Source: Patescibacteria group bacterium (GTDB lineage Bacteria; Patescibacteriota; Patescibacteriia; Buchananbacterales; UBA6539). From it: 64,000 nucleotides of DNA. The translations under genes were made by a program, and so were the position numbers. This document shows, in pieces, positions 3,003 to 61,325 of the stretch (position 1 is the stretch's first letter; each line of letters begins with the position of its first letter). The stretch covers positions 344-64,343 of the forward strand of contig JBAZMQ010000008.1 in NCBI GenBank assembly GCA_041649675.1. The letters run 5' to 3'. Under the pieces are notes generated by a model that saw only the letters and a program-made list of their open reading frames with translations, did not search any database and was not told the DNA's origin.

Positions 3003-3051
3003 AAAAATTAGAAACTTTATTGAGTTAAATATTTTGAATATTTAAATTATT

Positions 3052-3516: not shown

Positions 3517-3517
3517 T

Positions 3518-4261
3518 ATGAAAAAATTTTTATTAATTTTATTTAGCGTCGTGGTGGTTGTGATTGTTGCCGCAGTTAGCTTGCAAATTTTTATCAGCAA
3601 TCAACGTAATCAACAGGCTTTAGTAATTGATAAAAACATTGCCAGTTTTGTCGATTGTGCCAAAGCCGGCTATCCGATTATGGAAACTTATCCCGAGCAA
3701 TGTAGAACCAAGGACGGTAGAACTTTTGTAAAACCAATTCCTAATCCGGAAATTATTGCCGGCGTTGAATCGCTCCAATATAGTGATTCTGAGTTTGGTT
3801 TTTCTTTTTGGTATCCAGCTGGCGCTGAAGTCAGAAAGGAAAATTTGGAAGGCTATTTAAGTTTAGCCAAAGCTGGTTTAGCGGGAATATTTTTACCCCA
3901 GGAATTATTTGTTGGTACGAACTTGGGAGAAGCGGCGGTAATTGTTGGAATTAGTACCAGTCCGGATGCAGTCAGTAAATGTGAACAAATTAACACCACC
4001 AATGATGAAAAAGATTTGGGTCCAGCCATGATTGGGTTTGCCTCCGGTCATAAATTTTCTGCCGTCGGTGTCGGGGCAGGTAATATTTATGAATCAACAA
4101 TTTATCGTTTGGTAAAAAATCAAAATTGTTACGAGATTGTTGAATTATTGCATTCGGGCAATATTTATAATTACGATCCGGGTACGGTTGAAGAATTTGA
4201 TAAAAATAAATTTTTAGGAATTTTGGAAAAAATGGTGCAAAGTTTTGTCTTTAGTAACTAA
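3518..4261 (+). CDS. Hypothetical secreted or membrane-anchored protein
   Basis: N-terminal hydrophobic signal anchor MKKFLLILFSVVVVVIVAAVSL. No catalytic motif recognised. Confidence 0.45.
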   Translation: MKKFLLILFSVVVVVIVAAVSLQIFISNQRNQQALVIDKNIASFVDCAKAGYPIMETYPEQCRTKDGRTFVKPIPNPEIIAGVESLQYSDSEFGFSFWYPAGAEVRKENLEGYLSLAKAGLAGIFLPQELFVGTNLGEAAVIVGISTSPDAVSKCEQINTTNDEKDLGPAMIGFASGHKFSAVGVGAGNIYESTIYRLVKNQNCYEIVELLHSGNIYNYDPGTVEEFDKNKFLGILEKMVQSFVFSN

Positions 4262-8845: not shown

Positions 8846-9406
8846 ATGACTAAAAAAACTCACGAAAATTTGCTTAAAGCCATTGCCGGCGAATCAATAG
8901 CGCGCAATAAGTACACTTATTTTGCTGAAATTGCCATGAAAGAAGGTCTAGTTTGGATTGCCAAGGTTTTTGAAGAAACCGCGGATAATGAACGGGCTCA
9001 TGCTCAAGAGGAATTAGAAAAATTAAAAAAGCCGGTTGCCATGACCAACACTTATGACATCCATCCCTTGGGAAAAACTTTGGAAAATCTACGCAATGCC
9101 CAAGCTGGTGAAGAATACGAATTTGGCACGATGTACCCGGATTTTGAGAAAATGGCGCTGCAAGAAGACGAAAAAGATATCGCCACTTTGTTTAAAGAAA
9201 TCAGCGAAGTGGAAGAAAAGCATGCCGAGCGTTATAAAATTTTAGGCGATCGCTTGGAGCAAGGTAAATTATTTGAAAGCGACGAGGAAATTGAATGGAA
9301 GTGCCTAAATTGCGGGTATATTCACAAAGGCAAAAGTGCGCCGAAAAAATGTCCGCTTTGCCAAAAGCCGCAGGGCTATTATATGGGGCTGAAGGTAGTC
9401 AGATAA
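8846..9406 (+). CDS. rbr: Rubrerythrin
   Basis: N-terminal ferritin-like diiron domain (E...EGESIARNKY...E..H) plus a C-terminal rubredoxin-like CxxC...CxxC (CLNCGYIH...CPLCQ). Confidence 0.9.
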   Translation: MTKKTHENLLKAIAGESIARNKYTYFAEIAMKEGLVWIAKVFEETADNERAHAQEELEKLKKPVAMTNTYDIHPLGKTLENLRNAQAGEEYEFGTMYPDFEKMALQEDEKDIATLFKEISEVEEKHAERYKILGDRLEQGKLFESDEEIEWKCLNCGYIHKGKSAPKKCPLCQKPQGYYMGLKVVR

Positions 9407-9426
9407 AAAATTAAGAAAATAAAAAA

Positions 9427-9454
9427 ATAAGAAATTAATTTTTTAATTTCTTAT
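9427..9454. terminator. Bidirectional intrinsic terminator between rbr (+) and metallopeptidase-1 (-)
   Basis: Perfect palindrome ATAAGAAATTAA-TTTT-TTAATTTCTTAT flanked by A- and T-runs. Confidence 0.6.
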
Positions 9455-11637
9455 TTTTTTATCTCAAAGACAATCGGATGAGGCAAATCACGGTAGCCGC
9501 CGGAGTTATACAAGATAAAATCAGGCAGGCTGATTTTGCAGCCATCGGCTGTCATTTCCGAAATCACACCTTTCTTTGGCACATTCCAAGAGGTGTTATT
9601 TTGTGGGACAGTGGCGCTTTCACCGGAAATTTCATTATGAATCGTGAAGCCCGGGGTTTCAAATTTGCCCTCTTTAGTCACAGCTTCAAACGTGCCGTCT
9701 TTCAGGACTGATTCCGCACTTAAATCAAATTCTAAATAATGATCATAAGCAAAATTCATGGCGCTTGAAGTGATAAACAAAGCCGTCTGGCTGGGCCAAT
9801 CTTCCCGATAAGTGACTTTAACTCTCCATTTACCCAAGTAAGCATATTTGGCCTTGGCCGGGACCGAATCTTTAACTAATTCACCTTCAGCCTGATATCT
9901 GACAATACCAGTATAGTTTGGGCTAACAGCAAAGATGGGTTTAGAAACCATAGTCTCCCCTTGATTAATTTCATAGCACGACTCTTGAGTCTTAACTTTA
10001 ATGTCGCTTACGTCTATTTTATTTTTCATTTCGGCATTGCTGAAAATCAAAATAATTCTGTCAAAATCTTCATCCGCCTTGTCAAAGCAAAAACTGCGGC
10101 TTTCTTTGTCGGTCCAATCTTCGGTGTAGGGTTGGCCATTATTTTTTGGATAGATTATGGCCTTGATTGCCGCGTTGCCACTTTTGCCGGTAAAATTTTT
10201 CAGATCTTTAAAGACTGCTTTACGTACACCTTGCGCGTCGCTAAAGAAAGTTTCAATCACCTGGGCCGTCAGCGGTTTTAATTCTTTGGTGGGAATACTA
10301 GTTTCGCCGGGTGCCAAGAAAATCATATCGTTATTGTCTTTTTGATTGGTATCACCGGTGAACTTTTTACTCTGGTCGGCTTTTTTATAATTTTCGATTG
10401 GGTTTTGATTAAAATTCCACAAGGTAAATTCTTTCCAGTTTTTCTTAAAGCCGCCGTTAATGGTTTTTTCGGCACTGGCCAGCGGAGTAGAACCGCCGGT
10501 ACAACCTTCAAAAATTTTAGTGACAATCATCCGATCATAAGTATTGGATAGATAAAAAGGAAAAACATAAGCGCCATATTCAAAATTTTTGCCATTTTCA
10601 AACAAGCTCGTGGCCGGTCTTGGAATAAAACTTTCAACATATCCTTGTTCAGTATTATCTTTGGGGTAGATCATATCTTCCGACCAGGTAGCTGTGCCTT
10701 CAATCCACCACCAGTTGGCGACGTAAAGCCGGCATTCAAAAGCCCGTTGAAAGGCGTGGAATAATTCATGAACGGTTGTAGTCTTTAAATATCTGTCATT
10801 TAAATTTTCTCGAAGGATGATATAACTGCTTTTGCCATTGCCGTTATCCGGCACGTTAACGCCCTGGGAAGGTGAACCACCTTTCGAATCAGCTAAATGA
10901 ACATGGGCACCAGTTGCTATAAAAATATCGGTTTTATTATCGCCACCCAAAGTTCCGTCCGAAGGGGGAGTTTTCCCAAGTAAGCCGACAAACTGGGCAT
11001 AGGCGCCGTCGGCATTTAAGTTTGCCACAATTTTTTGGGCGACATTATAATAGAGCTTAGTGACTTTTTCCTCGCTGTTAACCATTTCCTTTTTTTCCAG
11101 ATACCAGACTTTAATTTTGCCATCGGCAGTTATTAAAGTGTCATCGGATTTGTAAGACAGGGGACGATCAAAAGCTTTGGCTTGATCAATTAGTTGAAGC
11201 CAGCTGGTTTGTGGCGCTTGGATTTCACCATTCATAATTTTACTCATCGCGCTTTCCGGATTATCCGGCCGCAAAAAATACGGCGCCAAAGTCTTTTTAG
11301 TTTCAGCTGTTAGTTTGCTCCAGTTTTCGGCAATTTCGCCAAAAGTGCCGCCATCTTCAAACGGCCCATTGGCGCTGGCATATTCTTTTGGCAAAGTTGG
11401 GTCATTGAATAAAAATTTAACCTTATTGATCAAAGCCGTGTCTAAATTAATTTTGCCTTCAGCTAAGTCTTTTTGGATTGAATCAAGGCCGGTTGGCTCG
11501 TTACTGTAGCGCGGGTCAGTAAATTTGTCAGCTTCGGCCACTTTGGCTTTCTCGCCTTTGGGTAAGAAAAAATAAAGACCGACTCCAGCGGCAAGAATGA
11601 TGGTCGCTGCAATGATTAAAATTAGTTTCTTTTTCAT
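9451..11637 (-). CDS. Secreted gluzincin-type metallopeptidase (HExxH...E; peptidase-MA-like), paralog 1
   Basis: Signal peptide MKKKLILIIAATIILAAGVGLYFF. Zinc motif TVHELFHAFQ with a downstream WWWIEGTATWSED glutamate. Shares NxxWxxFSxxTKxxLxPFLL and EATATW motifs with the 13290-15512 gene. Confidence 0.65.
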   Translation of the reverse strand: MKKKLILIIAATIILAAGVGLYFFLPKGEKAKVAEADKFTDPRYSNEPTGLDSIQKDLAEGKINLDTALINKVKFLFNDPTLPKEYASANGPFEDGGTFGEIAENWSKLTAETKKTLAPYFLRPDNPESAMSKIMNGEIQAPQTSWLQLIDQAKAFDRPLSYKSDDTLITADGKIKVWYLEKKEMVNSEEKVTKLYYNVAQKIVANLNADGAYAQFVGLLGKTPPSDGTLGGDNKTDIFIATGAHVHLADSKGGSPSQGVNVPDNGNGKSSYIILRENLNDRYLKTTTVHELFHAFQRAFECRLYVANWWWIEGTATWSEDMIYPKDNTEQGYVESFIPRPATSLFENGKNFEYGAYVFPFYLSNTYDRMIVTKIFEGCTGGSTPLASAEKTINGGFKKNWKEFTLWNFNQNPIENYKKADQSKKFTGDTNQKDNNDMIFLAPGETSIPTKELKPLTAQVIETFFSDAQGVRKAVFKDLKNFTGKSGNAAIKAIIYPKNNGQPYTEDWTDKESRSFCFDKADEDFDRIILIFSNAEMKNKIDVSDIKVKTQESCYEINQGETMVSKPIFAVSPNYTGIVRYQAEGELVKDSVPAKAKYAYLGKWRVKVTYREDWPSQTALFITSSAMNFAYDHYLEFDLSAESVLKDGTFEAVTKEGKFETPGFTIHNEISGESATVPQNNTSWNVPKKGVISEMTADGCKISLPDFILYNSGGYRDLPHPIVFEIKK

Positions 11638-13289: not shown

Positions 13290-15512
13290 CTAATCCATCT
13301 TCCTATATTCCCAATCAATCGTGCCTTTGATATTATCTCCCGGCTGGTAGGTGGTATGGCCTTTAATCACTTTGTCATTGGGCTTGATGGTAATTTCAAT
13401 TGGGTTGGGGGCATAAGAGTAGCTGGCGGAATACTCGGTATTACTGCTTTCCTGATAACCGCCCCAGGCGTTTTGTAATGGCAGAATGAAGGAACAGTTT
13501 TTTTCCAAATACTGCCAGTAGCTGGTGGTTTTGAATTGTCTTTGAGCCGTGGCTGAATCGGGATCAGGCTTGATGTCAAAACCGATTTCATAAGGGCCGC
13601 CGATTTTGCCGGTTAAATCTTCGGCGTGAGTGGTGCCGTAGATTCGGCTGTGTTGTTGCTCTTCATTTTTGAGATCATAGATATAATTACCATTGCCGCT
13701 GGTGGTACTGCGTGAATTGTCAAAAATTACACCGCAGCCGCCCCGGCCACCCTGATAGGTTTTGTTATATTTTTCATTGAAGGTAAAATTATGTTTTTTT
13801 ACTAACAACTCATCATTTTCCGGATCATATTCGAGTTCTTCATGAATCGAATAAGAACCGCCAGTTTTCACATTGCCGCTGGCTTTGCCATAATCCATAT
13901 ATGCTCCCTGCCAACTGACGCGAACCGTGCCAATCCAGCCTGGGCCGCATTTTTTTTCCGCTTTGGTTTTTAAGTTGCCATTGGCGAGATTAATGATATC
14001 TGAATTGGTGGTAATCAAAACGGCAGCGGTGATGTTTTCCTCGTCCAAATTGCGACAGAAAGTCCGTTCCGGCAAATTTGACCAGTCTTCGTAATACCAA
14101 TTGTCACCAATCTTAATTAGGGCTTGCAAACCCTTGGGTCCATTTTCGTTGGGCTCAAATGCCTTAACGTCAAAAGTCAGTTTTTTAATATTATCATTGG
14201 TCAGATAGTAGAAATAATATTTCGCCCCACCTCTTTCTAAACTGACGGCTTCGGTTTTTTCACCAAATGAATGCAGCGGAATCATTTTCATTGAAGCGCC
14301 TCCGGGAGTAATGGCGGGAAATTGGGGCGTATCGTTGTGGTAAATAAATGGTATTTGATTCCAGTTCCAGAAAGAAAATTCTTTGAATTCATCATTAAAG
14401 TCCGGCCGGGATTTCAAAGCTTGGCGGGCGGCATTGGTTTGTTTGGCTCTAGCCAAGGCTAAAGCGATGTCTTGGCCACCGCCACCGGCTTTTTCGGTCA
14501 AATAATAAAACCAAAGATAAGAAGCATATTCGTGGCTGGCTTTAGTGCTTAATAAATCCCAGTTAGTGTAGTTAAAAAAATCAGAATCATATTCGTGTTC
14601 AGTGTTATAGTTATGATAAACAAAATCTTCAGCCCAAGTGGCGGTGGCTTCCATCAGCCATTTCATATCCAATTCATATTTGAAACCATAAAAATATTGG
14701 TAGCAATGAAAAACTTCATGAGCCGTGGTGGCCTGAGTTATTTTTTGATCCAAACCAGTTTTGATTCTAACCACGCAGATTTTATTGGAGACCGGATTTA
14801 AAGAAGCTTGGCCGTAGCCGGAAAGACCGCGGCTGTTTAAATAAATATTGATTTTTTTGTCAGTCAAATCAATGCCAAGTAAGTCAGAAAATTTTGGCAC
14901 CGAATCAACCGCGGCAGTTTGAGCCCAAACATTATTTTGATAATCCTGTTGTTCGCGCGATTTATCATAGTAAACGCTGACTTGGGGCAAAGGTTTTGAT
15001 TCAACCCAGACTGTCGCTGGCGCCGCCCCGGCCGGCTTGATTAAAAGTAGCTTATCCCAAAGATTTTTTTCCTCATCAGCGGTCAAAGCCGGACTGTAAT
15101 AACTTTTGGGATCATCCGGCGGCAGTAAAAAGGGGAGTAAAGCATCTTTTGTCTGTTGAGAAAAAGAATTCCACTTTTCATTAATTAAGCCGAAAAGATA
15201 GGCGTCATCAGTGGAAACTGGCGCGCCTTGGAATTCTGCCGGTAATTTAGTCTGGTCAGCCAAGCCAATCACTTGATAAACTATACTTTGTTCCTCGGTG
15301 ATTTTGTCCGCCGTTTGCGCGGCTTGAATTTTATCCGCACTAGTTTCTTGATAAGGAACTTCTGGCCTGTATGATTCAACGATTTTTTTTACTTGGGGAT
15401 CAGTAATTTTTGAAGGGTCAATTGTTTCTTGAGCCGTCTGATTGTTTTTATTAAAACAGCCGGTGGTAAATAGGGTCAGGAGGATTAGTAGTAAAAATAG
15501 AGGTTTTTTCAT
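13290..15512 (-). CDS. Secreted gluzincin-type metallopeptidase lipoprotein (HExxH...E), paralog 2
   Basis: Lipobox LFTTGC. TTAHEVFHCYQ with downstream MEATATWAED. Paralogous to 9451-11637. Confidence 0.65.
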   Translation of the reverse strand: MKKPLFLLLILLTLFTTGCFNKNNQTAQETIDPSKITDPQVKKIVESYRPEVPYQETSADKIQAAQTADKITEEQSIVYQVIGLADQTKLPAEFQGAPVSTDDAYLFGLINEKWNSFSQQTKDALLPFLLPPDDPKSYYSPALTADEEKNLWDKLLLIKPAGAAPATVWVESKPLPQVSVYYDKSREQQDYQNNVWAQTAAVDSVPKFSDLLGIDLTDKKINIYLNSRGLSGYGQASLNPVSNKICVVRIKTGLDQKITQATTAHEVFHCYQYFYGFKYELDMKWLMEATATWAEDFVYHNYNTEHEYDSDFFNYTNWDLLSTKASHEYASYLWFYYLTEKAGGGGQDIALALARAKQTNAARQALKSRPDFNDEFKEFSFWNWNQIPFIYHNDTPQFPAITPGGASMKMIPLHSFGEKTEAVSLERGGAKYYFYYLTNDNIKKLTFDVKAFEPNENGPKGLQALIKIGDNWYYEDWSNLPERTFCRNLDEENITAAVLITTNSDIINLANGNLKTKAEKKCGPGWIGTVRVSWQGAYMDYGKASGNVKTGGSYSIHEELEYDPENDELLVKKHNFTFNEKYNKTYQGGRGGCGVIFDNSRSTTSGNGNYIYDLKNEEQQHSRIYGTTHAEDLTGKIGGPYEIGFDIKPDPDSATAQRQFKTTSYWQYLEKNCSFILPLQNAWGGYQESSNTEYSASYSYAPNPIEITIKPNDKVIKGHTTYQPGDNIKGTIDWEYRKMD

Positions 15513-15525
15513 AAAGTTTTTATTT

Positions 15526-15601
15526 TGTCATGTCGGATTCAATCCGGCATCCAGAGTTAATTTGTATTACTTCTTGATCCCGCATCAAGTGCGGGATGAC
15601 A
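15526..15601. repeat. TGTCAT...ATGACA palindromic element (copy 2), in the 5' leader of metallopeptidase-2
   Basis: TTGTCATGTCGGATTCAATCCGGCA...GATCCCGCATCAAGTGCGGGATGACAA, followed by AGGTTTAATGACGGGTTTATTATAGCAAAA, which is also conserved at 11727-11762. Confidence 0.6.
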
Positions 15602-15652
15602 AGAAAAGGTAAGGTTTAATGACGGGTTTATTATAGCAAAACCTATTACCAA

Positions 15653-15742
15653 TGTCATTGCGAGCGACCAGGGGAAGCGAAACAATCCACTAGGACCTTA
15701 GAGATTGCTTCATCCCGATAATAAGTCGGGACTCGCAATGAT
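15653..15742. repeat. TGTCATTGCGAG...CTCGCAATGAT palindromic element (copy 3)
   Basis: About 90 bp, bounded by 11/12-matching terminal inverted repeats. Confidence 0.55.
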
Positions 15743-15801
15743 ATAAACAAATAAAAAACACCCTGCAACTTTGGTGTAAGTGCAGGGATGAAGTGCAAAG
15801 A

Positions 15802-16749
15802 TCAGACTACGTGGGAAATTTCTCCGGGTTGGGGTGCCTGGTGGGCTGAGACAGGAACAGCCTCTGGAGAAACTGCTGGGCAGCCATCAAGGGTGGTAAC
15901 GTCGTCGGTCGGGTTAGGCGTGATGTCAAGTGCTATCTTGCCGCCAGCGTTGCAAATGCCGCAGGCCAAAAATCCGCCGTCAATGTTGATACAGGTACCA
16001 TTAATAAAGGATGCGCCCGGGGAGCAAAGAAATGCCACTACGCTGGCGATTTCTTCGGGTAGCCCATAGCGACCCATTGGTGTATTTGACTTGATGCGCA
16101 AACCGCGGTCGCCTAAGGCCAAAATTTCGCGGTTTTGTTCGCCTGGGAAAAAACCCGGTTCCACGGCATTGGTTCGGATGTCACCTTCAATTAACTGTGG
16201 GTCAACTGCCATTTGCCGGGTTAGGGCCAGCAAGCCGGATTTGGCACAGGCATAAGGGGTTACACCGCTTAAGGCAACCTGACTGGCAACCGAGCAGATG
16301 TTTACGATGACGCCGCCAGTGCCTTGCTTGAGCATTTGGCCCGCGACGGCTTGCGACATCCGGATCGCACCGTAAAGGTTAAGATCCATCAAGGTTTGGA
16401 AATCTTCCATGGTCGTTTCAAGAAACGACTTTTTTCCTCGGTTGCCGCCAGCGCAGTTGATCAGACCATCTACCTGGCCAAATTCCCCGATGGCAGTTCG
16501 GATTGCATACTCCACGTCAACGTTTTCACAGACATCAACTTTAATGACGATAGATTGGTTTTTGTCATAAGTTTGATCAAGCTCTTCGGCTTTGGCTATA
16601 GCCTTGTCAGTGCTGGCTGAACAGCAGACTACTTTGGCACCCAAATCCAAAAGTGTTTTGGTAATTGCCATTCCGATGACTCCGGTTCCGCCGGTGATGA
16701 TTATCACTTTTCCGGACAAATCAAATTTGTTCATGTACAAAACTCCCAT
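15802..16749 (-). CDS. SDR-family NAD(P)-dependent oxidoreductase with a ~60-aa C-terminal extension
   Basis: Rossmann TGGTGVIGMAI (TGxxxGxG), NCAG, catalytic YACAKSGLLALTR (YxxxK). Locally elevated GC. Confidence 0.75.
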   Translation of the reverse strand: MGVLYMNKFDLSGKVIIITGGTGVIGMAITKTLLDLGAKVVCCSASTDKAIAKAEELDQTYDKNQSIVIKVDVCENVDVEYAIRTAIGEFGQVDGLINCAGGNRGKKSFLETTMEDFQTLMDLNLYGAIRMSQAVAGQMLKQGTGGVIVNICSVASQVALSGVTPYACAKSGLLALTRQMAVDPQLIEGDIRTNAVEPGFFPGEQNREILALGDRGLRIKSNTPMGRYGLPEEIASVVAFLCSPGASFINGTCINIDGGFLACGICNAGGKIALDITPNPTDDVTTLDGCPAVSPEAVPVSAHQAPQPGEISHVV

Positions 16750-16916
16750 AAGTTGTGAGGATTTTCTCCTCCTTTTTTTGTCTCACAAATCGAGTAAATG
16801 TTAACTTAATAATTAAATTATGTCAACTTAGTAACGGTTAGTTTTCGCTGGGTAATTAATAGCGGCTTTTTGGTTTTTTTGTTATAATTTAAATAAGTTT
16901 GATTTAATTTTTTGAT

Positions 16917-19622
16917 ATGGCAAAAGTTCTTTGGCACGTTTTGGCTCAGCCAAAAGTTTTGAGTTCACTCAAAGCTGACAAAAATGGTTTGAGTCAAGCC
17001 GAGGCAGAAAAAAGAATAAAAAAGTTTGGCCTGAATAAATTGCCAGAAGAGAAACCAGAAACCGGTTTGGTAATTTTTTTAAACCAGCTTAAAAGCCCTT
17101 TGGTTTATGTTTTGCTTGGGGCCGCTGCCATTTCTTTTATTCTTCAAGATTTTGTTGATATGGCCGTAATTTTAATTACGGTTTTTATTAATATTGTTTT
17201 AGGTTTTTATCAAGAGAACCGAGCTTACAAAGCAATTTATTTTCTTAAAAAGTTAATTGATTTTAAAGCTAAAATTTTACGGGATAAACAGACGATTGAG
17301 ACTAATGCCATTAATTTAGTCCCGGGCGATATTATCATTTTAAAAGCCGGTGATAAAATTCCGGCTGACTGCCGGCTTTTAAGTCTGGATAATTTTTTGG
17401 TTAACGAAGCAACTTTGACCGGTGAATCAATTCCGGTGGAAAAAAGTTTGGAGTTATCAGGAAAAGGAGCAGTTTTAGCCGAGCGAAAGAATATGGTTTA
17501 TAGCGGTACAATCGTGGCGCGCGGTAAGGCTACGGCCGTAGTTTGTGAAACCGGCATTAATACCGAACTGGGCCAGATTACCAAATTAGTGGCCAAGACC
17601 AAAAAAGAAAAAACGCCGCTGCAATTACAGTTGGAAGTTTTTAGCCGTTATTTGATTTATGCAGTTTTGGCTATTTGTACTATTTTGATTGTAATTGGAA
17701 AATTGCAGGGCCGGGCAATTTTTGGCTTTGGTCAAGCCGCCAGAGAGGGAATGTTAAATACCGCTGCAGCCATTGCGGTAGCCGCTATTCCGGAAGGGCT
17801 TTCAATTTCTGTGACCGTGATTTTGGCCATTGGCATGCAAGCAATTTTGAAAAGGAAATCTCTCGTTCGTCATTTGGTCGCGGCCGAAACCTTGGGCAGC
17901 GTTTCAATAATTTGTACCGATAAAACCGGAACTTTGACTGAAGGGAAGATGCAAGTGGCAAAGATTATTACTGCCGAGACAGAAACTAACTCCCGGGGTT
18001 TAAAGCCGTATGTTCATTCTGACTTATTGGCTGATAAAGATTTGATTTTTAAAATGTCGCTTCTTTGCAGTGATGCGGTTTTGGAAAATCCTGAAGCGGA
18101 GCTAGAAGAACAAAAGATTATTGGCGATCCAACTGAAACTGCTTTACTCTTGGCGGCCTTGCAAAATGGTATTCCTTACCAGCAAATTCATAAACAACAG
18201 CCGCGGTTAGCCGAGCTTCCCTTTGATTCAGAAAATAAATATATGGCGACTTTAAATCAGCTTGATTCGCAAAACCAAGTGCTTTACGTTAAAGGTGCAG
18301 GGGAAAAAATATTTGGTATGATTTCGCAGCTTAGGATAAATGGAAAGAAGGAATCAGTTAACGAGGCTAAATTAAAATTATTAAAAGTTAAATATGAGAG
18401 GTTAACAAATCAAGGTTTAAGAGTGTTAGCTTTTGCTTATAAAAAAATTCCTAACCAAAAAGATTTAAAAATTAAAACAGAGCTGAATAATTTAATTTTT
18501 GTCGGATTTGTCGCCTTACAAGATCCATTACGGCCCGAAACCAAAGACACGATTAAATTGGCGCAAAAAGCTGGGATTAGAACGATTATGGTAACGGGTG
18601 ATCATAAATTGACAGCCAAGGCCATTTATAGGGAATTAGGCTTTGAGATTTCCGAAAAGAATATTTTGGAAGGTCATCAACTAGAGCAAATGAGTGACGA
18701 GGAATTAGAAAAAATTGTGGAAAATATTGATATTTACGCCAGGGTTGAGCCGCATCATAAATTAAGAATTGTTGACGCTTGGCAAAAGAAAGGCGAAGTA
18801 GTGGCCATGACTGGTGACGGGGTCAACGACGCCGCGGCGATTAAATCAGCCGATATCGGCATTGCTTTGGGTTCGGGTACTGACGTGGCCAAAGAAACAT
18901 CAGATTTGATTTTGCTGGATAATAATTTTAAAACTATAATTACAGCAATTGAACGCGGCCGGATAATTTTTGATAATATTAAAAAAAGCATTTTATACCT
19001 TTTATCCGATTCGTTTTCGGAAATTATTTTAATCTCCGGGGCTTTGATTTTAGGTTTGCCCTTGCCGATTTTACCGGCCCAAATCATTTGGGTTAATATG
19101 ATTGATGATGGTTTTCCCAGCCTGGCTTTAACGCTGGAAAAAGGGGATGAAAATGTGATGAGTTACAAACCAAGAAGAAAGAAGGAAAAAATTCTAGATT
19201 CAGAAATGAAAATTTTGATTTTTGGCATCAGCGCTATGACCAATTTAATTTTGTTAGCCTTGTTTTATTATCTTTTTAAAACTGAGGTTTTTGATCTAGC
19301 CCATATCCGTACTTTAATTTTTTCAATGTTAGGTCTTGAGTCATTGCTTTATGTTTTTTCCTGCCGCAATCTTCGGCGTTCAATTTTTAAATCAAATCCT
19401 TTTTCCAATTTGTATTTAGTGGCAGCAGTTTTAGCCGGCCTGGGTCTGCAATTAATGGCAATCTATCATCCTTTTCTCCAAAAAATATTTGAAACTGTAA
19501 ATTTAGGTTTGATTGATTGGGTAATAATTATTATTTTAAATTTGATCCAGTTAGCCGGTATTGAATTGGTCAAATATTATTTTATTTCTAAAAAATACAA
19601 ATTTAGTCAGGTTACTACTTAA
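16917..19622 (+). CDS. P-type (type IIA, Ca2+/Mg2+-like) cation-transporting ATPase
   Basis: Phosphorylation site ICTDKTGTLT, TGES, hinge MTGDGVNDAAAIK, ten predicted TM helices, 901 aa. Confidence 0.9.
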   Translation: MAKVLWHVLAQPKVLSSLKADKNGLSQAEAEKRIKKFGLNKLPEEKPETGLVIFLNQLKSPLVYVLLGAAAISFILQDFVDMAVILITVFINIVLGFYQENRAYKAIYFLKKLIDFKAKILRDKQTIETNAINLVPGDIIILKAGDKIPADCRLLSLDNFLVNEATLTGESIPVEKSLELSGKGAVLAERKNMVYSGTIVARGKATAVVCETGINTELGQITKLVAKTKKEKTPLQLQLEVFSRYLIYAVLAICTILIVIGKLQGRAIFGFGQAAREGMLNTAAAIAVAAIPEGLSISVTVILAIGMQAILKRKSLVRHLVAAETLGSVSIICTDKTGTLTEGKMQVAKIITAETETNSRGLKPYVHSDLLADKDLIFKMSLLCSDAVLENPEAELEEQKIIGDPTETALLLAALQNGIPYQQIHKQQPRLAELPFDSENKYMATLNQLDSQNQVLYVKGAGEKIFGMISQLRINGKKESVNEAKLKLLKVKYERLTNQGLRVLAFAYKKIPNQKDLKIKTELNNLIFVGFVALQDPLRPETKDTIKLAQKAGIRTIMVTGDHKLTAKAIYRELGFEISEKNILEGHQLEQMSDEELEKIVENIDIYARVEPHHKLRIVDAWQKKGEVVAMTGDGVNDAAAIKSADIGIALGSGTDVAKETSDLILLDNNFKTIITAIERGRIIFDNIKKSILYLLSDSFSEIILISGALILGLPLPILPAQIIWVNMIDDGFPSLALTLEKGDENVMSYKPRRKKEKILDSEMKILIFGISAMTNLILLALFYYLFKTEVFDLAHIRTLIFSMLGLESLLYVFSCRNLRRSIFKSNPFSNLYLVAAVLAGLGLQLMAIYHPFLQKIFETVNLGLIDWVIIIILNLIQLAGIELVKYYFISKKYKFSQVTT

Positions 19623-24218: not shown

Positions 24219-24578
24219 ATGAGAAAAATTGCAATTTTAACTACTCTAGTGGCAATTTTTGCTATCAGCGTTTTACCGGCGCTAGCTTTAGACGTCGGTT
24301 TGAACTATGGTACTTACACTGGTTTAGGGACTAAAGATATCCGTGAAGGAATCATGGCCGTAATTAGAATATTGCTAGGCTTTTTAGGCATTATCGCCAT
24401 CGTGATTATGCTTTACGGCGGTTTTGTTTGGTTAATTTCTGCTGGTAACGAAGAAAAAGTTGGTCAGGCCAAAAAAATTATTACCGCTGGGGTGATTGGT
24501 TTGGTTATCATCTTTGTCTCTTACGCTTTGGCCACCTTCGTCGTTAGCCAACTTATGACAGCCACTGGGGCTATTTAG
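24219..24578 (+). CDS. Small secreted 2-TM protein, VirB2/TrbC-pilin-like (tandem paralog 1)
   Basis: Sec signal (…LPALA|LD), then two hydrophobic helices separated by SAGNEEKVGQAKK, 119 aa. RBS GAAAGGGGGTGAAACAATG. Confidence 0.4.
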   Translation: MRKIAILTTLVAIFAISVLPALALDVGLNYGTYTGLGTKDIREGIMAVIRILLGFLGIIAIVIMLYGGFVWLISAGNEEKVGQAKKIITAGVIGLVIIFVSYALATFVVSQLMTATGAI

Positions 24579-24663
24579 TTATAATTTAATAAGTTTAGAC
24601 TTGAATTGATTTTTGGTAAGATATCTAAGCCTTTACTTATATTATTTGAAAGGGGGTGAAACA

Positions 24664-25023
24664 ATGAAAAAATTTATTGTTTTAACAGCGTTAGTTTCAG
24701 TTTTCCTTTTTTCCGCTATGCCAGTTTTGGCCTTAGAAACCGGTTTGAACTATGGTACTTACACTGGTTTAGGGACTAAAGATATCCGTGAAGGAATCAT
24801 GGCCGTAATTAGCGTATTACTAGGCTTTTTAGGCATTATCGCCATCGTGATTATGCTTTACGGCGGTTTTGTTTGGTTAACTTCTGCTGGTAATGAAGAA
24901 AAAGTTGGTCAGGCCAAAAAAATTATTACCGCTGGGGTGATTGGTTTGGTTATCATCTTTGTCGCTTACGCTTTGGCCACCTTCGTCATTAGCCAACTTA
25001 TGACAGCCACTGGAGCTGTTTAA
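24664..25023 (+). CDS. Small secreted 2-TM protein, VirB2/TrbC-pilin-like (tandem paralog 2)
   Basis: Near-identical mature region to 24219-24578 (about 90% nt identity from LNYGTYTGLGTKD onward), with an identical RBS and a different signal peptide. The start is taken at the internal MKKF rather than the ORF-track 24613. Confidence 0.4.
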   Translation: MKKFIVLTALVSVFLFSAMPVLALETGLNYGTYTGLGTKDIREGIMAVISVLLGFLGIIAIVIMLYGGFVWLTSAGNEEKVGQAKKIITAGVIGLVIIFVAYALATFVISQLMTATGAV

Positions 25024-25052: not shown

Positions 25053-25727
25053 ATGACCAATTTTACAGACCTTGGTTCAATTTTTTCCACCTCGATTACC
25101 GAGATTTGGTTTAAGTTTGTAAATCTGATCCCAAATTTAGTGGCCGCAGTCTTAATCTTTATTATTGGTTTGTTTGTGGCTAATGCCTTTGGCCGCTTAG
25201 TTGCTAAAATAATCAAAAAGATTTATGTTGACCGGGCAGTAGAAACTACCGGGCTGAAAAAAGTTTTAGAAAGTATTGGTTTTAAAGTGGAAGTGAGTAA
25301 AGCTTTGGGCCTGTTAGTTGCCTGGTTTTTGTATGCCGTGGTTTTGATCGCGGCGGCTGATATTTTAGGGTTAAGCGAAATTTCCGCGTTTTTAAGCGCG
25401 GTTGTTTTGTACCTACCTAATATCTTTATTGCCATAATCATTTTAATTGTTGGCATTGTTGTCAGTAATTTTGTTTATACTCTAGTTAAAGAAACATCGT
25501 TGGCCGCCAAGTTAACCTCAGCTGATTTTTTGGCCAATGTGGCTAAATGGTCGCTTTTGGTTTTTACTTTTATGGCGGCTTTAATCCAGTTAAAAGTTGC
25601 TTCGGATTTGATTAAGATTCTTTTCACCGGATTAGTTCTCATGATTTCTTTAGCCGGCGGTATTGCTTTTGGTTTAGGCAGTAAAGATCGCGCCAAGGAA
25701 TTTATCGATAAACTCGTTGGAAAATAA
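25053..25727 (+). CDS. Membrane protein with two 'conserved TM helix' (MscS-associated) repeats
   Basis: IPNLVAAVLIFIIGLFVANAFGRLVAK and LPNIFIAIIILIVGIVVSNF repeat the PF05552-like motif. Confidence 0.45.
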   Translation: MTNFTDLGSIFSTSITEIWFKFVNLIPNLVAAVLIFIIGLFVANAFGRLVAKIIKKIYVDRAVETTGLKKVLESIGFKVEVSKALGLLVAWFLYAVVLIAAADILGLSEISAFLSAVVLYLPNIFIAIIILIVGIVVSNFVYTLVKETSLAAKLTSADFLANVAKWSLLVFTFMAALIQLKVASDLIKILFTGLVLMISLAGGIAFGLGSKDRAKEFIDKLVGK

Positions 25728-26319: not shown

Positions 26320-27621
26320 TTAGAGTAAGGCAATAATTAGCCAAAACAGAACGGCTAAATCATTTTTGAAATAGGGCACGTCAATAAAACCGTGAACTAA
26401 AATGGTTATCATGGCAGCCATTAGGCCCAACTTAAGCCAGCGATTTTCTTTATTAACTTCGCTTAACCCTTTTTTGAAGAATTGAATTATTAGAATAATA
26501 AAAGAACTTAAACCTAACAAACCAAGTTCCAGCCAGAAGTTGAAAAAGATATTGTGTGCATAAAGTAATGGCTCCATCTTTAGTGGATTGCGCAATTGAT
26601 TTTGGATCTGGGCAAAACCTAAAATACCGCTGCCAAAAATAAAATTTTTGGGACTGCTTAATAAATACTTTTCGCTCATCTGCCATAAAATTATACGGTT
26701 TTGGCTGGATTGGCTGGTAAGATTTAATAATTTATCGGCCGCAATTGGCAAAACCAGCAGGGAAATTATAATTATTAATAGCATTAGTAGCAGTTGTAAT
26801 TTGTTGATTTTTAGCTGGAATTTTAATTGAGGTAAAAAAGCAAAAGAGATTAAAAAGATGATAGCTGCTATTAAGCCCAACCAAGTTCCTTGTGAGACAG
26901 TAAAGATGATTGCAATGATTGCTGGAATCAAAATTAGCAATTTGCCAATTGCGCCCAGCCAATTTTTAAATTCCGCAATCAGCCAGCCAAGATAAATAGT
27001 AATAATCGGACCCAGATACAAACCAACGGCGTTTGGTGAGCTAAAAATTGCAGTGACGCGGCGGCGGCTGGGAGCAATCCAAATCGGTTGGGCAATGCCA
27101 AAGGCGGTAAATTTTTGGTAAATGGCTAAAAATGAAATTAATAAAGAAGAAATTCCCAAAGCCCAAAGAATTATTTTTTTATCTTGGTCTGATTTAACAA
27201 CATTAATTAAAACCAAGAAAAACAAAATCGGTTCAATGAAATAAGCTTTCCAGAGCCCAGCGGCGGTGATTTTATTTGGGGCAATAAAAATGCTAATTGT
27301 TGCTGCGATAATAAATAGTAAAATTGGTAAGAGATATAGCTTGTAGCTTGTAGCTTGTAGCTTGTAGGGTTTGGCTTGGATAAACCAACCAAAAAAGGTT
27401 ACTAAAAGGCAAAGTTCTAAATAGGTGATTGGGACAAACCAAATTTGGCTGCGGCAAAGATAAGTGGGCAGTAAAATAATAGTGAGAGCGCAAGCGTAAA
27501 TTGATTTTTTAAAGCTGAGATAGCCTAAAACAACTAAAACAATCAGCATTAAAAAGTTTAACTGATACCAAGATTGGTTTAGAAGGTCTTGAATTTGCCA
27601 ATTGTAATCAAACCAAAACAT
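26320..27621 (-). CDS. O-antigen ligase/polymerase-like (Wzy_C/WaaL family) polytopic membrane protein. It contains an (AGCTTGT)x4 heptanucleotide repeat at 27338-27365.
   Basis: About 12 TM helices with a large periplasmic loop, the typical architecture of this family. It lies in a cluster with a flippase and a GT39 gene. Confidence 0.5.
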   Translation of the reverse strand: MFWFDYNWQIQDLLNQSWYQLNFLMLIVLVVLGYLSFKKSIYACALTIILLPTYLCRSQIWFVPITYLELCLLVTFFGWFIQAKPYKLQATSYKLYLLPILLFIIAATISIFIAPNKITAAGLWKAYFIEPILFFLVLINVVKSDQDKKIILWALGISSLLISFLAIYQKFTAFGIAQPIWIAPSRRRVTAIFSSPNAVGLYLGPIITIYLGWLIAEFKNWLGAIGKLLILIPAIIAIIFTVSQGTWLGLIAAIIFLISFAFLPQLKFQLKINKLQLLLMLLIIIISLLVLPIAADKLLNLTSQSSQNRIILWQMSEKYLLSSPKNFIFGSGILGFAQIQNQLRNPLKMEPLLYAHNIFFNFWLELGLLGLSSFIILIIQFFKKGLSEVNKENRWLKLGLMAAMITILVHGFIDVPYFKNDLAVLFWLIIALL

Positions 27622-27626
27622 AATTA

Positions 27627-28619
27627 TTATTTTGAATTTAAGATTTTAACACAAAATCCGTTGGTTGCTTGTTTTCTAAAATCATTAATTTGCCGCCGGT
27701 AGTTGGGGTCAATTTTTGATAATCTGATCAGCTTACCATTTTGGAGCAATGGCGGGTCAACGATTCTAAATTTGGTTTTTAAAATTAAGTCAGCTTTTTT
27801 AGGCTCAACAATTTTAATTTTTAATTTTTTTAAAGTTTTAAGCTGCTGATTAATTTCTGAATCCTTGGCTAGCTTAAGTTTTTTCATCACCACATCATCG
27901 GTGGTAAACAGATCTTTTTTGTTAATGATTTTTTTGGCCAAACTCAATTTAATGGTATCAGCCAAAATCCAATAAAGGCTGGATTGTAAAGGATTACACC
28001 AAACAACTTTGTTTAGTTTTAAATATAAGTAGGAAAATTTTTTGGCCGAAGCGACATTGGCAAAAACAAAATGGTTTTGGTAAACGATTAATTTTTTTAT
28101 TAAATCTTGAGTTTTATTTTTTAGTAGGTATTTAGCTATCGGATCCTGTAAAGTATAATCAATCCGATCGGCACATAAATCCGGTAGTTCTTTTTCCAAC
28201 AAGGTAAATTTTGAAAAATCCAAAATTTTTTTTGGTTTGAGCCCATGGTGTTTTAATATTTTATTTATGCCCTGCAATTCAAAAGCTTTTTTGAGCCGGC
28301 TATCCTGATAATCTTGGTATAATTCGCGGCCGTAAACCCGGTCAATGACATGGGAAAAAGCAGTGTGAGAAATATCGTGCAATAATCCGGCTGTTTGTTC
28401 TTCAAGACTGGCGCCATATTTTCTAAGTAAAAGTAAAACGCCGATTGAATGTTGATAACGATTGAAATTTCCCGGTTTTTGATGATAGAAATGCCAAGCC
28501 CCGAGCTGGGCAATTTTTTTTAATCGCTGTAAAGCCGGTGATTTAATTAAATCAATTAAAACCGGTTCACTGATGGTAAAACGGCCGTAAATTTTATGAT
28601 TAATTATTGTTGGTTTCAT
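27627..28619 (-). CDS. HD-domain phosphohydrolase
   Basis: QHSIGVLLLL...LLHDISHTAFSH (H...HD...H...H...D). Confidence 0.65.
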   Translation of the reverse strand: MKPTIINHKIYGRFTISEPVLIDLIKSPALQRLKKIAQLGAWHFYHQKPGNFNRYQHSIGVLLLLRKYGASLEEQTAGLLHDISHTAFSHVIDRVYGRELYQDYQDSRLKKAFELQGINKILKHHGLKPKKILDFSKFTLLEKELPDLCADRIDYTLQDPIAKYLLKNKTQDLIKKLIVYQNHFVFANVASAKKFSYLYLKLNKVVWCNPLQSSLYWILADTIKLSLAKKIINKKDLFTTDDVVMKKLKLAKDSEINQQLKTLKKLKIKIVEPKKADLILKTKFRIVDPPLLQNGKLIRLSKIDPNYRRQINDFRKQATNGFCVKILNSK

Positions 28620-30039
28620 CTTTTTTGACTTTAATAATTTCTAAAACCATTTCTCGGTCAAAACCCTTAAGCAAATATAGACAGAGAAAATAAACAACCG
28701 CGCCCAGACAAACTGACATCAGTAAGGGTAAATTAGGCAAGTAATAGAGGGGGATTGCCATTACTAAACTGGCCAAAATTACTTTACCCAGAATTTTTAA
28801 GTTAGGTAAAAATTTAAGTTGTTGGTAAAGAATCAAACCAGCCGTGGCCAAAATAAAAATTTCAGTAAACACCGTCATCCAGGCCGCCCCCCAGTAAGAA
28901 TAAAGCGGAATGAAGATTAAGTAACCAATTACTGAAATTACGGCATTGAGGGCATAAAATTTGATCATCTTTTTCTGTTGGTTTAAAGCCACCACGGCAT
29001 AACCAAATAAACCGGCAATAAAAATTGACCCAGTAGCTAAAAATAATATTTTGATAATTTGGCCCGAAATGGCAAAATCCGGCCCGGCCATTAAAACCAT
29101 TAGAGGTACACCCAAAAAGTAGCCGCCCACAATCATTGGTATGGTAAAGATAATTAAAAAATCAAAAGTTGATTGGATAATTTTTTTTAATCTTTCAAAA
29201 TTATTAATCGCTGAAGCCGTGGCCAAAAGTGGCAGAATTAAACCTAAAAACAGATAAACAACATTAATTAATACCTCTAACACTTTGTAAGGTGCGCCGT
29301 AAAGGCCGACCTCCGATTGGGTGCGAACTAATGACATGATAAAAATATCGCCCTTAAAATAAATTAAATTTAAAGCAATGGTTAAAGCCACCGGCCAAGT
29401 TTTGGTAATAATTTTTTGCCAAACTAACCAATCAAAGCTGGGTTTTAATTTTAATTGTTTGGAAGCAAAATAAAACATGATAATAAAAACGAAAAAGCTG
29501 TCTAAGGAAGCTGCCACTAAAATTCCCCAAAGCCCAAGATCAAAGTAGATTGTAATAATGGTGAGGATTAAATAAATTATTTTAGCGGTTACTTCAGCAA
29601 TAACCGCTTTGACCATGATTAAGTTTTTTTGAAACAAGCTGGTTAAGGTTGCCGTTAATGAAGCCGAGACAAAACCAACAATAGCAATAACCATGCCAAT
29701 TTTGACAATTGTTGGGTAGGGCAAAAATATTGCCACTAGAGGAGCAAGGCTTAAAAAAGTAATTGAAGCAATCAGCCGGATGGTTAGGGCATTGCTCAAA
29801 ATCTGGCTTTCATTTTCTTTTGGGTTAGAAATCAACTGAGTGGTTGTCATCTGCAGCCCCAAATCAATTAAAATTCCAAAAATAGCCAAGAAAGCATAAA
29901 TGGTTGAATAATAACCAACGCCTTGTTGACCTAAGTAGCGAGTCATTAAACCAAAACCAACCAAAGCTAAAGCTATCACCAGGGCTTTGCCGATGACTTG
30001 AATCATTGTATTATGGGCAATTTTTTGAACTTCACTCAT
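28600..30039 (-). CDS. Polysaccharide/oligosaccharide flippase (MOP superfamily, Wzx-like)
   Basis: 479 aa with about 14 TM helices and the Polysacc_synt-like N-terminal organisation. Confidence 0.55.
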   Translation of the reverse strand: MSEVQKIAHNTMIQVIGKALVIALALVGFGLMTRYLGQQGVGYYSTIYAFLAIFGILIDLGLQMTTTQLISNPKENESQILSNALTIRLIASITFLSLAPLVAIFLPYPTIVKIGMVIAIVGFVSASLTATLTSLFQKNLIMVKAVIAEVTAKIIYLILTIITIYFDLGLWGILVAASLDSFFVFIIMFYFASKQLKLKPSFDWLVWQKIITKTWPVALTIALNLIYFKGDIFIMSLVRTQSEVGLYGAPYKVLEVLINVVYLFLGLILPLLATASAINNFERLKKIIQSTFDFLIIFTIPMIVGGYFLGVPLMVLMAGPDFAISGQIIKILFLATGSIFIAGLFGYAVVALNQQKKMIKFYALNAVISVIGYLIFIPLYSYWGAAWMTVFTEIFILATAGLILYQQLKFLPNLKILGKVILASLVMAIPLYYLPNLPLLMSVCLGAVVYFLCLYLLKGFDREMVLEIIKVKKDETNNN

Positions 30040-36125: not shown

Positions 36126-36323
36126 ATTAAAATTTTAAAAACCAAATCTCAAAGCTAAAAAATTAGGAAGTCGCCTGGCGGCGACTGATATTGTTTTTTA
36201 ACATTAATTATAATAAGATAAAAGCAGTTTTATGTCAATCCTGCACCGAAGCTCGCGAATTAAATGGTAATGGAATTTTTATTTCATGGCCACTTTAAAT
36301 TATTTGATTTACTTAAATAAACA

Positions 36324-36824
36324 ATGAAAAAAGAAACAAGAAACAAAAAAAATAATTTTTTGGCAAAAAGTGATGAGGTTTATTTAGTGGCTCAAAATGT
36401 TAGAAGTTTATTTAACGTCGGTTCATTTTTTAGAATTGCCGATGTCTTTGGGGTGAAAAAAATTTTTCTTTGCGGTTATACCGGTTTTCCGCCCCGGCAG
36501 CAGATTAGCAAAACCGCTTTGGGTGCTGACCAATGGGTGGCCTGGGAAAAACAATATCAGACACACTTGGTAATTAAAAAATTAAAAAAACAGGGAATTA
36601 AAATTGTAGTTTTAGAAACCGGCCAAAAAAGTAAGTTATTGCCTGAGTTTAAACCCAAATTTCCACTAGCCTTGGTGGTGGGTAATGAAATTAAGGGAGT
36701 CAGTAAAAGTATTTTGGCCCTGGCTGATGAAGTCGTCAAAATTCCGATGCAGGGTAAGAAAGAATCATTAAACGTGGCGGTGGCAGCAGCGGTGGCTTTA
36801 TATCAATTACAAAATCAGCACTAG
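36324..36824 (+). CDS. TrmH/SpoU-family RNA 2'-O-methyltransferase
   Basis: SpoU motifs ...LVVGNEIKGVS... and ...VKIPMQGKKESLNVAVAAAVALYQL. Confidence 0.7.
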   Translation: MKKETRNKKNNFLAKSDEVYLVAQNVRSLFNVGSFFRIADVFGVKKIFLCGYTGFPPRQQISKTALGADQWVAWEKQYQTHLVIKKLKKQGIKIVVLETGQKSKLLPEFKPKFPLALVVGNEIKGVSKSILALADEVVKIPMQGKKESLNVAVAAAVALYQLQNQH

Positions 36825-46578: not shown

Positions 46579-47658
46579 TTATAGAAAATCGCTTTTGTAA
46601 TTTGGGGCTTCTTTTATTTCTTTTAAGCTGTGCGGATGACTTTCGCGTAAACCGGCCGGTGAAATTCTGACAAACTCGGCTTTCTTGGCCAGTTCATAAA
46701 TATCTTTGGAACCGCAATAGCCTAAACCTTGGCGGATACCGCCAATCATTTGAGAAATTACGTGATTAGCTGATCCTTTGTAGGGGACATGGCCAACCAC
46801 ACCTTCAGCAATTAATTCATTATCATTTTTTCCACTTTGTAAATAACGATCTTTACTGCCTTGTTGCATGGCGTCAATTGAACCCATGCCGCGGTAAGTT
46901 TTGAATTTTTTGCCTTTGATTTCCACAATTTCTCCCGGGGCTTCGTCCGTGCCGGCAAACAAACCGCCAAGCATGACCGCAACGGCACCGGCGGCCAAGG
47001 CTTTAACAATATCACCAGAATATTTTATGCCGCCATCAGCAATAATTGGAGTTTTGGTTTTTTTAGCGGCTTTAACAGCTTCCATTACGGCGGTTAGTTG
47101 AGGCACGCCAATGCCGGCAATAATTCGGGTCGTACAAATTGATCCGGGTCCAACTCCGACTTTAACAACATCAGCGCCAGCGGCGATTAAATCAGCAGTG
47201 GCTTTAGCGGTTGCCACATTACCGCCGATAATTAAAATATTTTTTGGCAGAATTTTTTTTAAGGCTTTAATGGTTTCAGCCACTTTATAGTAATGGCCAT
47301 GGGCCACATCAATTACAATGGCATCAGCCCCAGCGGCAACCAAAGCTTTGGCTCGAGCAATGGCTTGATCACCGACCGAAACGGAAGCGCCACACAAAAG
47401 ATTTTGATCTTTTACTTTTTTGACTTCTAAGGCTTGTTGCTCGGTGGGCATATTTTTATGGATAATACCTAAGCCGCCGGCCTTGGCTAAAACTATAGCT
47501 AAGGCACTTTCGGTTACCGTATCCATGGCCGCAGACAACAAAGGGATTTCCAATTTTAATTTTTTTCCCAAGGTAACAGCGGTGCTGACTTGACTGGGTG
47601 AAGTATTAGATTTTTGGGGGACGAGTAAAACGTCGTCAAAAGTTAAGGCTTCTTTCAT
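46579..47658 (-). CDS. guaB: IMP dehydrogenase/GMP reductase family protein (IMPDH lacking the CBS subdomain, or GuaC-like)
   Basis: TIM-barrel IMPDH motifs including the catalytic loop [11 protein letters not shown] and GGI...GG. 359 aa. Divergent from guaA. Confidence 0.75.
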
Positions 47659-47781
47659 ATTTTAGAATTAAGAATTACGAATCATGAATTAAGGGTGATA
47701 ATTTTTTAATTCATTATTCTTACTTCATAGTTCTTATTATACTTTATTCTAACCCAAATTTAAGATATAATCAATTTAGAT

Positions 47782-57731: not shown

Positions 57732-61037
<3,306 letters not shown>

Positions 61038-61216
61038 AATTGGGAGCGTTGAATTTTGATTTATTCTTTTTAAATTACCAGAAGCCAAGTATCCGAAATA
61101 CTCTGTTTTTGCCTTCGGATGCTTCCTTTTGGTGGTTTTATCCGCCTACGCTCTCACTGCGTTTGAGCTTCGGCGGATAAGGGCGAAAAATTGTTCATTA
61201 AAGTGGGTTTTAGAGT

Positions 61217-61325
<109 letters not shown>

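Follow-up and report, generated by a model that had tools for sequence, protein, structure and literature searches.

Phase variation driven by simple sequence repeats (SSRs) is a hallmark of host-adapted pathogens. In Escherichia coli K1, the CUS-3 prophage capsule O-acetyltransferase gene neuO carries an (AAGACTC)n tract in its 5' coding region and is full length only when the number of units is divisible by three; alleles with as few as 3 and as many as 53 units are known (mode 20), the OFF state accounts for 65.6% of complete genomes, and switching has been measured (PMC13001214). A heptanucleotide repeat in the coding sequence also controls phase variation of pglE, the pilin glycosyltransferase of Neisseria meningitidis (PMC7157529). 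In Haemophilus influenzae, heptamer SSRs are found at the hmw1A and hmw2A promoters, with an intragenic (AATTTTG)14 tract in hmw1A of strain PittAA, and these were judged potentially able to mediate phase variation in a survey that counted 7-mers from three units (PMC2651432). Here we analyze a perfect heptanucleotide SSR at positions 27337–27367 of a 64,000-nucleotide stretch of contig JBAZMQ010000008.1 from a Patescibacteria group bacterium (assembly GCA_041649675.1; this whole stretch is referred to as the window). The tract lies within a gene on the minus strand (26320–27621) that encodes an intact polytopic membrane protein of 433 residues, whose domain is Wzy_C and whose fold resembles that of WaaL. 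It is almost certainly the product of replication slippage within a family-wide hot spot, and we tentatively favor the view that this gene-specific, slipped-strand microsatellite toggles the enzyme, an adaptive on/off role included. In the literature that we searched, no paper links phase variation with Patescibacteria, and none links an O-antigen ligase with phase-variable slipped-strand tracts.

Tandem Repeats Finder (TRF) describes the tract as a period-7 repeat of 4.4 copies with 100% matches and a score of 62. Its 31 bp read TAGCTTG ×4.43 on the plus strand and (CTACAAG)4CTA on the coding strand (×4.43), beginning at gene nucleotide 255 and encoding, in frame, the peptide PYKLQATSYKL over codons 85–95. 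The repeat is uninterrupted, and its unit length is not a multiple of three. The original prediction, made from the letters of this DNA, had placed AGCTTGT ×4 at 27338–27365 inside an intact 433-residue gene; this is the same tract in another register, with its left end set one base and its right end two bases too far inward, and the open reading frame (ORF) is indeed intact, with an ATG start and the Wzy_C domain. Scanning the window for perfect repeats of period 4 to 12 with at least four copies recovered two only, both of them heptamers, and 300 simulations of the window with a third-order Markov model never produced a period-7 repeat of at least four copies; together these results rule out a chance origin. 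The two-unit pattern has no further occurrence in the window (0.28 expected).

An assembly artefact must also be weighed: tandem repeats can be mis-assembled, and one of the related contigs discussed below (L009) breaks off within its tract. A second, independent assembly (L175, ENA ERZ27247363) nevertheless matches the window over 2,302 bp, tract included, which rules out an artefact at this site, and 31 bp is far shorter than reads or k-mers. With the gene intact, homologous tracts present in many orthologues and the simulations as described, chance similarity or artefact becomes an extremely remote explanation. A structural element at the DNA or RNA level was rejected as well, since the 61-nt coding strand folds only weakly as DNA (−4.1 kcal/mol, z = −1.83, with 8 of 200 shuffles equally good) and an Rfam search found no family at the tract.

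The position of the tract within the gene makes the consequences of slippage straightforward to predict. In silico, unit changes of −2, −1, +1 and +2 give products of 104, 135, 111 and 142 residues, respectively, all of which are devoid of the Wzy_C domain; the claim that gain or loss of one unit shifts the frame is borne out by these truncations. Changes of −3 and +3 units keep the frame and give 426 and 440 residues. If the present four-unit, in-frame allele represents the ON state, replication slippage by one or two units would shift the frame after about codon 95 and leave stumps of 104 to 142 residues (OFF), and slipping on until the change amounts to three units would restore the frame with seven residues more or fewer. 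Its most probable role would then be that of a contingency locus, a heritable on/off switch thrown reversibly and at low frequency, at the last step of surface-glycan attachment or polymerization; a low switching rate would be expected because there are only four units. A frameshift switch of this kind is plausible by analogy with neuO and pglE. The four-unit allele may itself switch, and switching, if it occurs, may be adaptive.

The assignment of the host gene rests on domain and structural evidence. Pfam PF04932 (Wzy_C) matches residues 230–375 with E = 4.5e-14 and 52.9 bits against a cut-off of 31.7, and the AlphaFold2 model, built with 29 homologues, reaches a pLDDT of 82.8 and a pTM of 0.86. 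In a Foldseek search of the PDB, the single match at E ≤ 0.001 is WaaL (7TPG; E = 1.8e-6, TM 0.58–0.61), although the two proteins share just 13% sequence identity. The protein scores 72.7 bits with the IctB equivalog model TIGR00947, well below its cut-off of 366.4, and so falls outside that family. Residues R187, R309, R344, H356 and H410 are invariant in our alignment of the family (A1). The protein is identical to a database entry (P0001) titled 'MAG: O-antigen ligase family protein [Patescibacteria group bacterium]', in which MAG stands for metagenome-assembled genome; this NCBI name is a family label. The next relative is 65% identical, and the nearest named genomes are those of Candidatus Buchananbacteria. 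Patescibacteria are not known to make lipopolysaccharide, and the acceptor is therefore probably not lipid A-core; the enzyme would act on a surface glycoconjugate. The organism is an environmental Patescibacteria MAG, and its presumed association with a host follows from what is known of the phylum.

To place the tract in the context of its gene family, we turned to orthologous loci collected regardless of repeats, 80 from species-representative genomes and 80 from metagenomes (160 in total), from which duplicates were removed to leave 156 loci and 1.875 Mb of DNA, overwhelmingly Patescibacteria; L numbers denote related loci. At least one heptamer tract is found in 38 of the 156 orthologues, and the relative positions of these tracts are trimodal. 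Mapped onto the window protein, they fall at residues 90–97, 214–227 and 389–396, with two more at 281–286, and these hot spots 1 to 3 correspond in the AlphaFold2 model to short inter-helix loops at residues 84–92, 217–220 and 389–393. Hot spot 1, which harbors the window tract, connects helices 67–83 and 93–113 (27346–27372, minus strand) and is marked by both secondary structure and a dip in pLDDT. Tracts recur at the three loops in orthologues down to ≈31 to 35% identity.

Orthologues that are 55 to 65% identical and share conserved synteny harbor heptamer arrays between the anchors TFLELC and GLWKAY. The units at hot spot 1 include CTACAAA ×3, CCTACNN ×5, GCTACCA ×2 with GTTACCA ×3, AGCTAAA (≈×5), CTACAAC (≈×4.4) and AAGCTAT/CAGCTAT; they differ by lineage and are uniform within an array. 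Since selection on the protein cannot produce a 7-bp periodicity, this periodicity is a signature at the level of DNA, and the uniformity of units within an array points to continuing unit turnover. An identical, unvarying tract in all relatives, which the original prediction had held would speak against it, is not what we observe, as orthologues vary in unit and in copy number. We also considered a lineage-specific insertion of seven residues in the window protein. Its loop measures 210 nt between the anchors, compared with 207 to 216 nt in orthologues, and the idea is unsupported because these orthologue loops of similar length themselves hold degenerate heptamer arrays.

The concentration of heptamers in this one gene is pronounced. 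Among perfect heptamer tracts of at least three copies in the collected loci, 31 of 38 lie inside the Wzy_C orthologue, which makes up 10.7% of the 1.875 Mb (binomial p = 4.4e-24); the independent count is 30 of 37, because two loci, L008 and L096, carry the same tract. Under looser TRF criteria, 41 heptamer tracts are found inside the orthologue versus 22 outside. The resulting density is roughly 37-fold that of flanking DNA, a comparison with neighboring genes. The adjacent Wzx-like flippase gene served as a separate, matched control: its 81 copies from the same loci (113.6 kb) contain no perfect heptamer tract of 17 bp or longer, compared with 59 such tracts in 200 kb of Wzy genes. Period 7 also stands out from other periods: perfect repeats of at least three copies number 38 for period 7, 10 for period 5, 9 for period 6, 8 for period 8 and 2 for period 9, and those of at least four copies number 17 for period 7, one each for periods 4 and 6 (the latter 28 bp) and none for periods 5, 8 and 9. 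The modal length of the perfect heptamer tracts is 31 bp (4.43 copies), with none reaching five copies, and copy numbers overall cluster near 4.4 and 7.3 to 7.6; noncoding heptamer tracts are too few for a comparison of the 4.4-copy mode.

Three comparisons show ongoing turnover of the tracts; two of them, L171 with L172–L174 and L033 with L044, are described further below, and the third is a pair of loci from one relative. L008 (ENA ERZ27247350, 43,930 bp) and L096 (JGI Ga0172381_10000583, 44,063 bp) have no mismatches over 4.4 kb, and their sole difference is 14 bp in the array of the residue-92 loop. In L096, exactly 27 units keep the gene in frame over its full 473 residues (MFA6322285.1, Candidatus Buchananbacteria). 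In L008, exactly 25 units split the gene over two frames, and only 339 residues are called. These alleles obey the same divisible-by-three rule as neuO. The two alleles do stem from two different assemblies (JGI and ENA/MEGAHIT), however, and an assembler effect is possible. A second split gene, in L010, was considered as a further tract frameshift and rejected, because its break lies at about residue 45, away from any heptamer tract.

The comparison with neuO extends beyond this rule, in that both loci place a heptanucleotide repeat within the coding region of a (here putative) surface-glycan enzyme and in-frame repeats encode a peptide with seven-residue periodicity. The two differ in that neuO has one tract near its 5' end in an acetyltransferase gene, whereas the present family has three loop hot spots in a polytopic membrane protein with a WaaL-like fold, phylum-wide and with unrelated units. 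pglE, a protein-glycosylation gene, resembles the window gene in carrying a coding heptamer, and the window gene adjoins pilin-like genes and a flippase gene; in pglE, switching is documented in carriage isolates, and both the protein family and the organism are different. With 4.4 units, the window tract passes the threshold of at least three units applied to H. influenzae but lies far below the 13 to 53 units typical of neuO and hmw, and the H. influenzae SSRs are mostly promoter-located tracts of 13 to 38 units in a host-adapted pathogen whose tetranucleotide contingency loci are known.

Several observations weigh against a working switch at the window tract itself. It has only 4.4 units and is identical in the two assemblies of the organism, and 17 further near-identical locus pairs show no indel or difference in tract length. 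The frame is broken at the tract in 1 of 171 related loci by tblastn, with nearly all relatives in frame, a count that is a weak test because consensus metagenome assemblies hide minority alleles. Both properties depart from neuO, with its 65.6% of OFF genomes and its modal allele of 20 units compared with four units and no observed variation here. Clusters of proteins at 90% identity were inspected for truncated variants or variants of plus or minus seven residues and, beyond P0076/P0121, yielded only contig-end fragments and an unrelated five-residue deletion; a search for OFF-state N-terminal fragments, made with residues 1–84 and afterwards with a profile of them, was uninformative, as it recovered only short fragments, nearly all on contigs below 1 kb or without contig information. 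The hot-spot loops, moreover, are predicted to be cytoplasmic from helix order, from a K/R-rich positive-inside pattern and from their location on the side opposite the conserved R/H-rich loops, and nothing in them points to surface variation as such; on this model, antigenic variation of an exposed loop was judged unlikely. Finally, tracts of 4.3 to 4.6 copies occur in presumably indispensable genes, namely those for GuaA, a probable LeuRS and TrmD-like and Nfo-like ORFs (the last three identified by eye from sequence motifs), so such tracts can become fixed without an OFF phase. We therefore dropped an earlier idea that each 4.4-copy tract is proof of a past OFF excursion, on the strength of those in the probable LeuRS, the TrmD-like ORF and GuaA. 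The classic slipped-strand phase variation of the original prediction thus stands as regards the configuration, the frame effect and the 25- and 27-unit alleles of a relative, but not for the tract itself, where the four units, the identity of two assemblies, the single frameshifted locus and the housekeeping-gene tracts speak against it; repeat number across strains is likewise divided, alike in the two assemblies of the organism and different in the relative.

These points are what would be expected of a nonadaptive insertion scar, in which heptamer slippage is general, coding DNA retains only frame-preserving expansions (as a rule +3 units, +21 bp and +7 residues), and three permissive loops of this protein accommodate them unusually well. 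The window tract would then be a fixed, essentially stable seven-residue insertion with no regulatory role. The modal tract of 31 bp with none reaching five copies, the near absence of out-of-frame alleles, the like tracts in housekeeping genes and the stability of the near-identical pairs all fit such a scar, as do 21-bp indels at the hot spots that are not heptamers (see below). It also agrees with a 2007 survey which, as summarized in PMC4679880, found heptanucleotides to be the commonest class of 5- to 11-nt repeats in most prokaryote genomes and proposed that a 7-nt polymerase contact favors slippage; the heptamer preference may be mutational. The TAACTGA heptamer direct repeats of Beggiatoaceae and Cyanobacteria are a single sequence that is mostly intergenic and upstream of start codons, whereas the window tract is coding and belongs to a set of diverse units concentrated in one gene family, which places it outside that group; the window does contain other heptamer arrays, both intergenic and within 23S rRNA. 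Tolerance alone, however, must account for the ≈37-fold density and for the absence of tracts from the equally loop-rich Wzx, tracts are perfect or re-homogenized in many lineages and recur independently at three loops, and an out-of-frame allele does exist (L008). We regard the scar as the main alternative to the slipped-strand switch, serious but rather doubtful.

A further possibility is that selection acts on the protein, adjusting loop length or composition seven residues (some two helical turns) at a time where transmembrane helices end on the cytoplasmic side, with frameshifts as by-products. The length of the heptad 'repeat domain' of NeuO is reportedly able to raise catalytic activity. 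Indels among the relatives come in exact 21-bp quanta, whether heptamer repeats or not, the two clusters of copy number would fit preferred lengths, and SYKLQAT-type peptides recur, at hot spot 1 in the window protein and at hot spot 3 in two other family members (P0012 and P0077). Units of a multiple of three would allow length changes with no lethal intermediate, but few tracts here have period 6 or 9 (3 and 2, versus 31 of period 7), and the units, and hence the peptides, differ widely among lineages. We therefore consider such tuning improbable as the cause of the pattern.

Some relatives carry the same or a similar heptamer or 14-mer unit at two hot spots: AGCTATAAGCTATC at both hot spots 1 and 3 in L020 (2224–2256 and 3124–3160), AGAAATC or a rotation of it at both hot spots 2 and 3 in L160 (3240–3266 and 3743–3773), and CTACAAA and CTACAAG at two hot spots in L001 (2255–2276 and 3242–3272). 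A shared unit could reflect conversion between hot spots or convergence, given that few heptamers are free of stops in all frames. Two other comparisons are pertinent here. L033 and L044 (82% nucleotide identity; ≈9020–10225 and ≈2659–3864, respectively) are set apart by two indels of 21 bp, the first at hot spot 2 and the second at hot spot 3, with one insert per genome at different hot spots; the inserts, CCATGCCTACCGGCAGGCAGG and ACTTACCTACTGGCAGGCAAG, are similar and partly palindromic, are not heptamer repeats, and suggest that a 21-bp cassette was moved or converted, as opposed to slippage on the spot. L171 and L172–L174, which belong to the same species, show nine substitutions in 4,410 bp, seven of them inside the five-unit tract at hot spot 3, and this cluster could be a conversion patch. 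A sequence-directed process, in which either the hot spots convert one another within the gene or some mechanism targets the gene and inserts favored heptamer arrays, would accommodate all of these cases, but we found no associated enzyme or template, units differ greatly among lineages, heptamers that are stop-free in all frames and encode polar residues could converge unaided, and 25 versus 27 units is a plain two-unit slip. Such a process is, in our view, very unlikely.

Slipped-strand mispairing at a gene-specific hot spot therefore remains the explanation that we favor. A more far-reaching version, in which heptamers are seeded and re-homogenized again and again at the three loops of this WaaL-like enzyme and provide phylum-wide, gene-specific hypervariation of a surface glycan by on/off as well as seven-residue length switches, is possible but, we think, unlikely.

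The second perfect heptamer of the window, (AGAAATC) ×4.29 at 49011–49040 (plus strand), lies in frame (REIRNQKSEIR) within guaA (47782–49587) and falls in the variable linker that joins the ATP-pyrophosphatase domain to the C-terminal dimerization domain of the encoded 601-residue GMP synthase; in the PDB, this enzyme best matches 2vxo, the long human form. This unit or a rotation of it is also the one found at two hot spots of the L160 Wzy orthologue. The divergent intergenic (promoter) region between the gene for IMPDH (46579–47658, minus strand) and guaA (47782, plus strand) is filled at 47664–47736 (plus strand) with imperfect arrays of AGAATTA ×4.3 and of TTAATTCATAATTC ×2.2 (a heptamer and a 14-mer, respectively), and imperfect AAACAAG ×4.4 (84% matches) covers the start of a SpoU-family rRNA methylase ORF (36324–36824) at 36319–36350 (plus strand). 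In locus L061, a 989-residue ORF, the probable leucyl-tRNA synthetase (15045–18014), contains several tracts of 4.3 to 4.6 copies with the units GATTTAA, AAATCCG, CAAGCTC and AAATCCC; some genomes seem to carry a generally high load of heptamer slippage.

Heptamers are also found in the rRNA of the window. The 23S rRNA gene (57732–61034) spans 3,303 nt versus 2,925 in the model and includes two similar stretches of ≈140 nt, at 59165–59305 and 59572–59712 (plus strand), that fold as long hairpins (−66.6 and −62.5 kcal/mol; z = −11.5 and −8.1, respectively). The hairpin arms are inverted heptamer arrays (TTAACNA, ≈4 copies per arm) that pair as 5-bp helices separated by 2-nt internal loops, and the hairpins look like rRNA expansion segments built of heptamer repeats. 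The 23S and 5S rRNA genes together occupy 57732–61324; upstream in the window there is no 16S gene but a 574-residue ORF at 55288–57012, and the rRNA genes thus appear to be unlinked.

The genes around the Wzy_C gene keep their order in relatives. Upstream on the minus strand are an HD-domain protein (27627–28619) and the Wzx-like polysaccharide flippase used as the matched control (Polysacc_synt; 28600–30039), and on the other side, on the plus strand, are two genes for T4SS-pilin-like proteins (24219–24578 and 24613–25023) and an MscS-like gene (25053–25727), all assigned by Pfam and synteny. Upstream of the Wzy orthologue, the HD-domain gene is called as 333 residues in L173 (496–1497) versus 399 in other assemblies of the same species, such as L172 (298–1497); the 5' end of L173 is wholly diverged from that of L172, which may reflect a rearrangement or a chimeric contig. 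L016, L022, L029, L031 and many other loci bear the title 'uncultured Gammaproteobacteria bacterium' in spite of a Patescibacteria-type neighborhood; these records, which are binchicken and SRP co-assemblies, look mislabeled.

Even if nonadaptive, the pattern amounts to a strong signature of heptamer slippage, one that leaves its mark on housekeeping proteins and rRNA expansion hairpins as well, and it draws attention to a recurring source of split or 'truncated' gene calls and of contig breaks in MAGs of the candidate phyla radiation (CPR). The family-wide pattern, with its ≈37-fold enrichment, three hot spots and 25/27-unit allele pair, makes the proposed switch testable with existing metagenome reads. 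Coding heptamer switches in glycan genes are already known, and what would be new, if confirmed, is the phylum-wide recurrence at three hot spots. CPR bacteria combine tiny genomes with a life attached to host cells and with exposure to phage. If the switch operates as proposed, these bacteria could bet-hedge on a surface glycoconjugate at very small genomic cost, and the tracts may be the first contingency loci described in ultra-small episymbionts, with possible relevance to host attachment or escape from phage.

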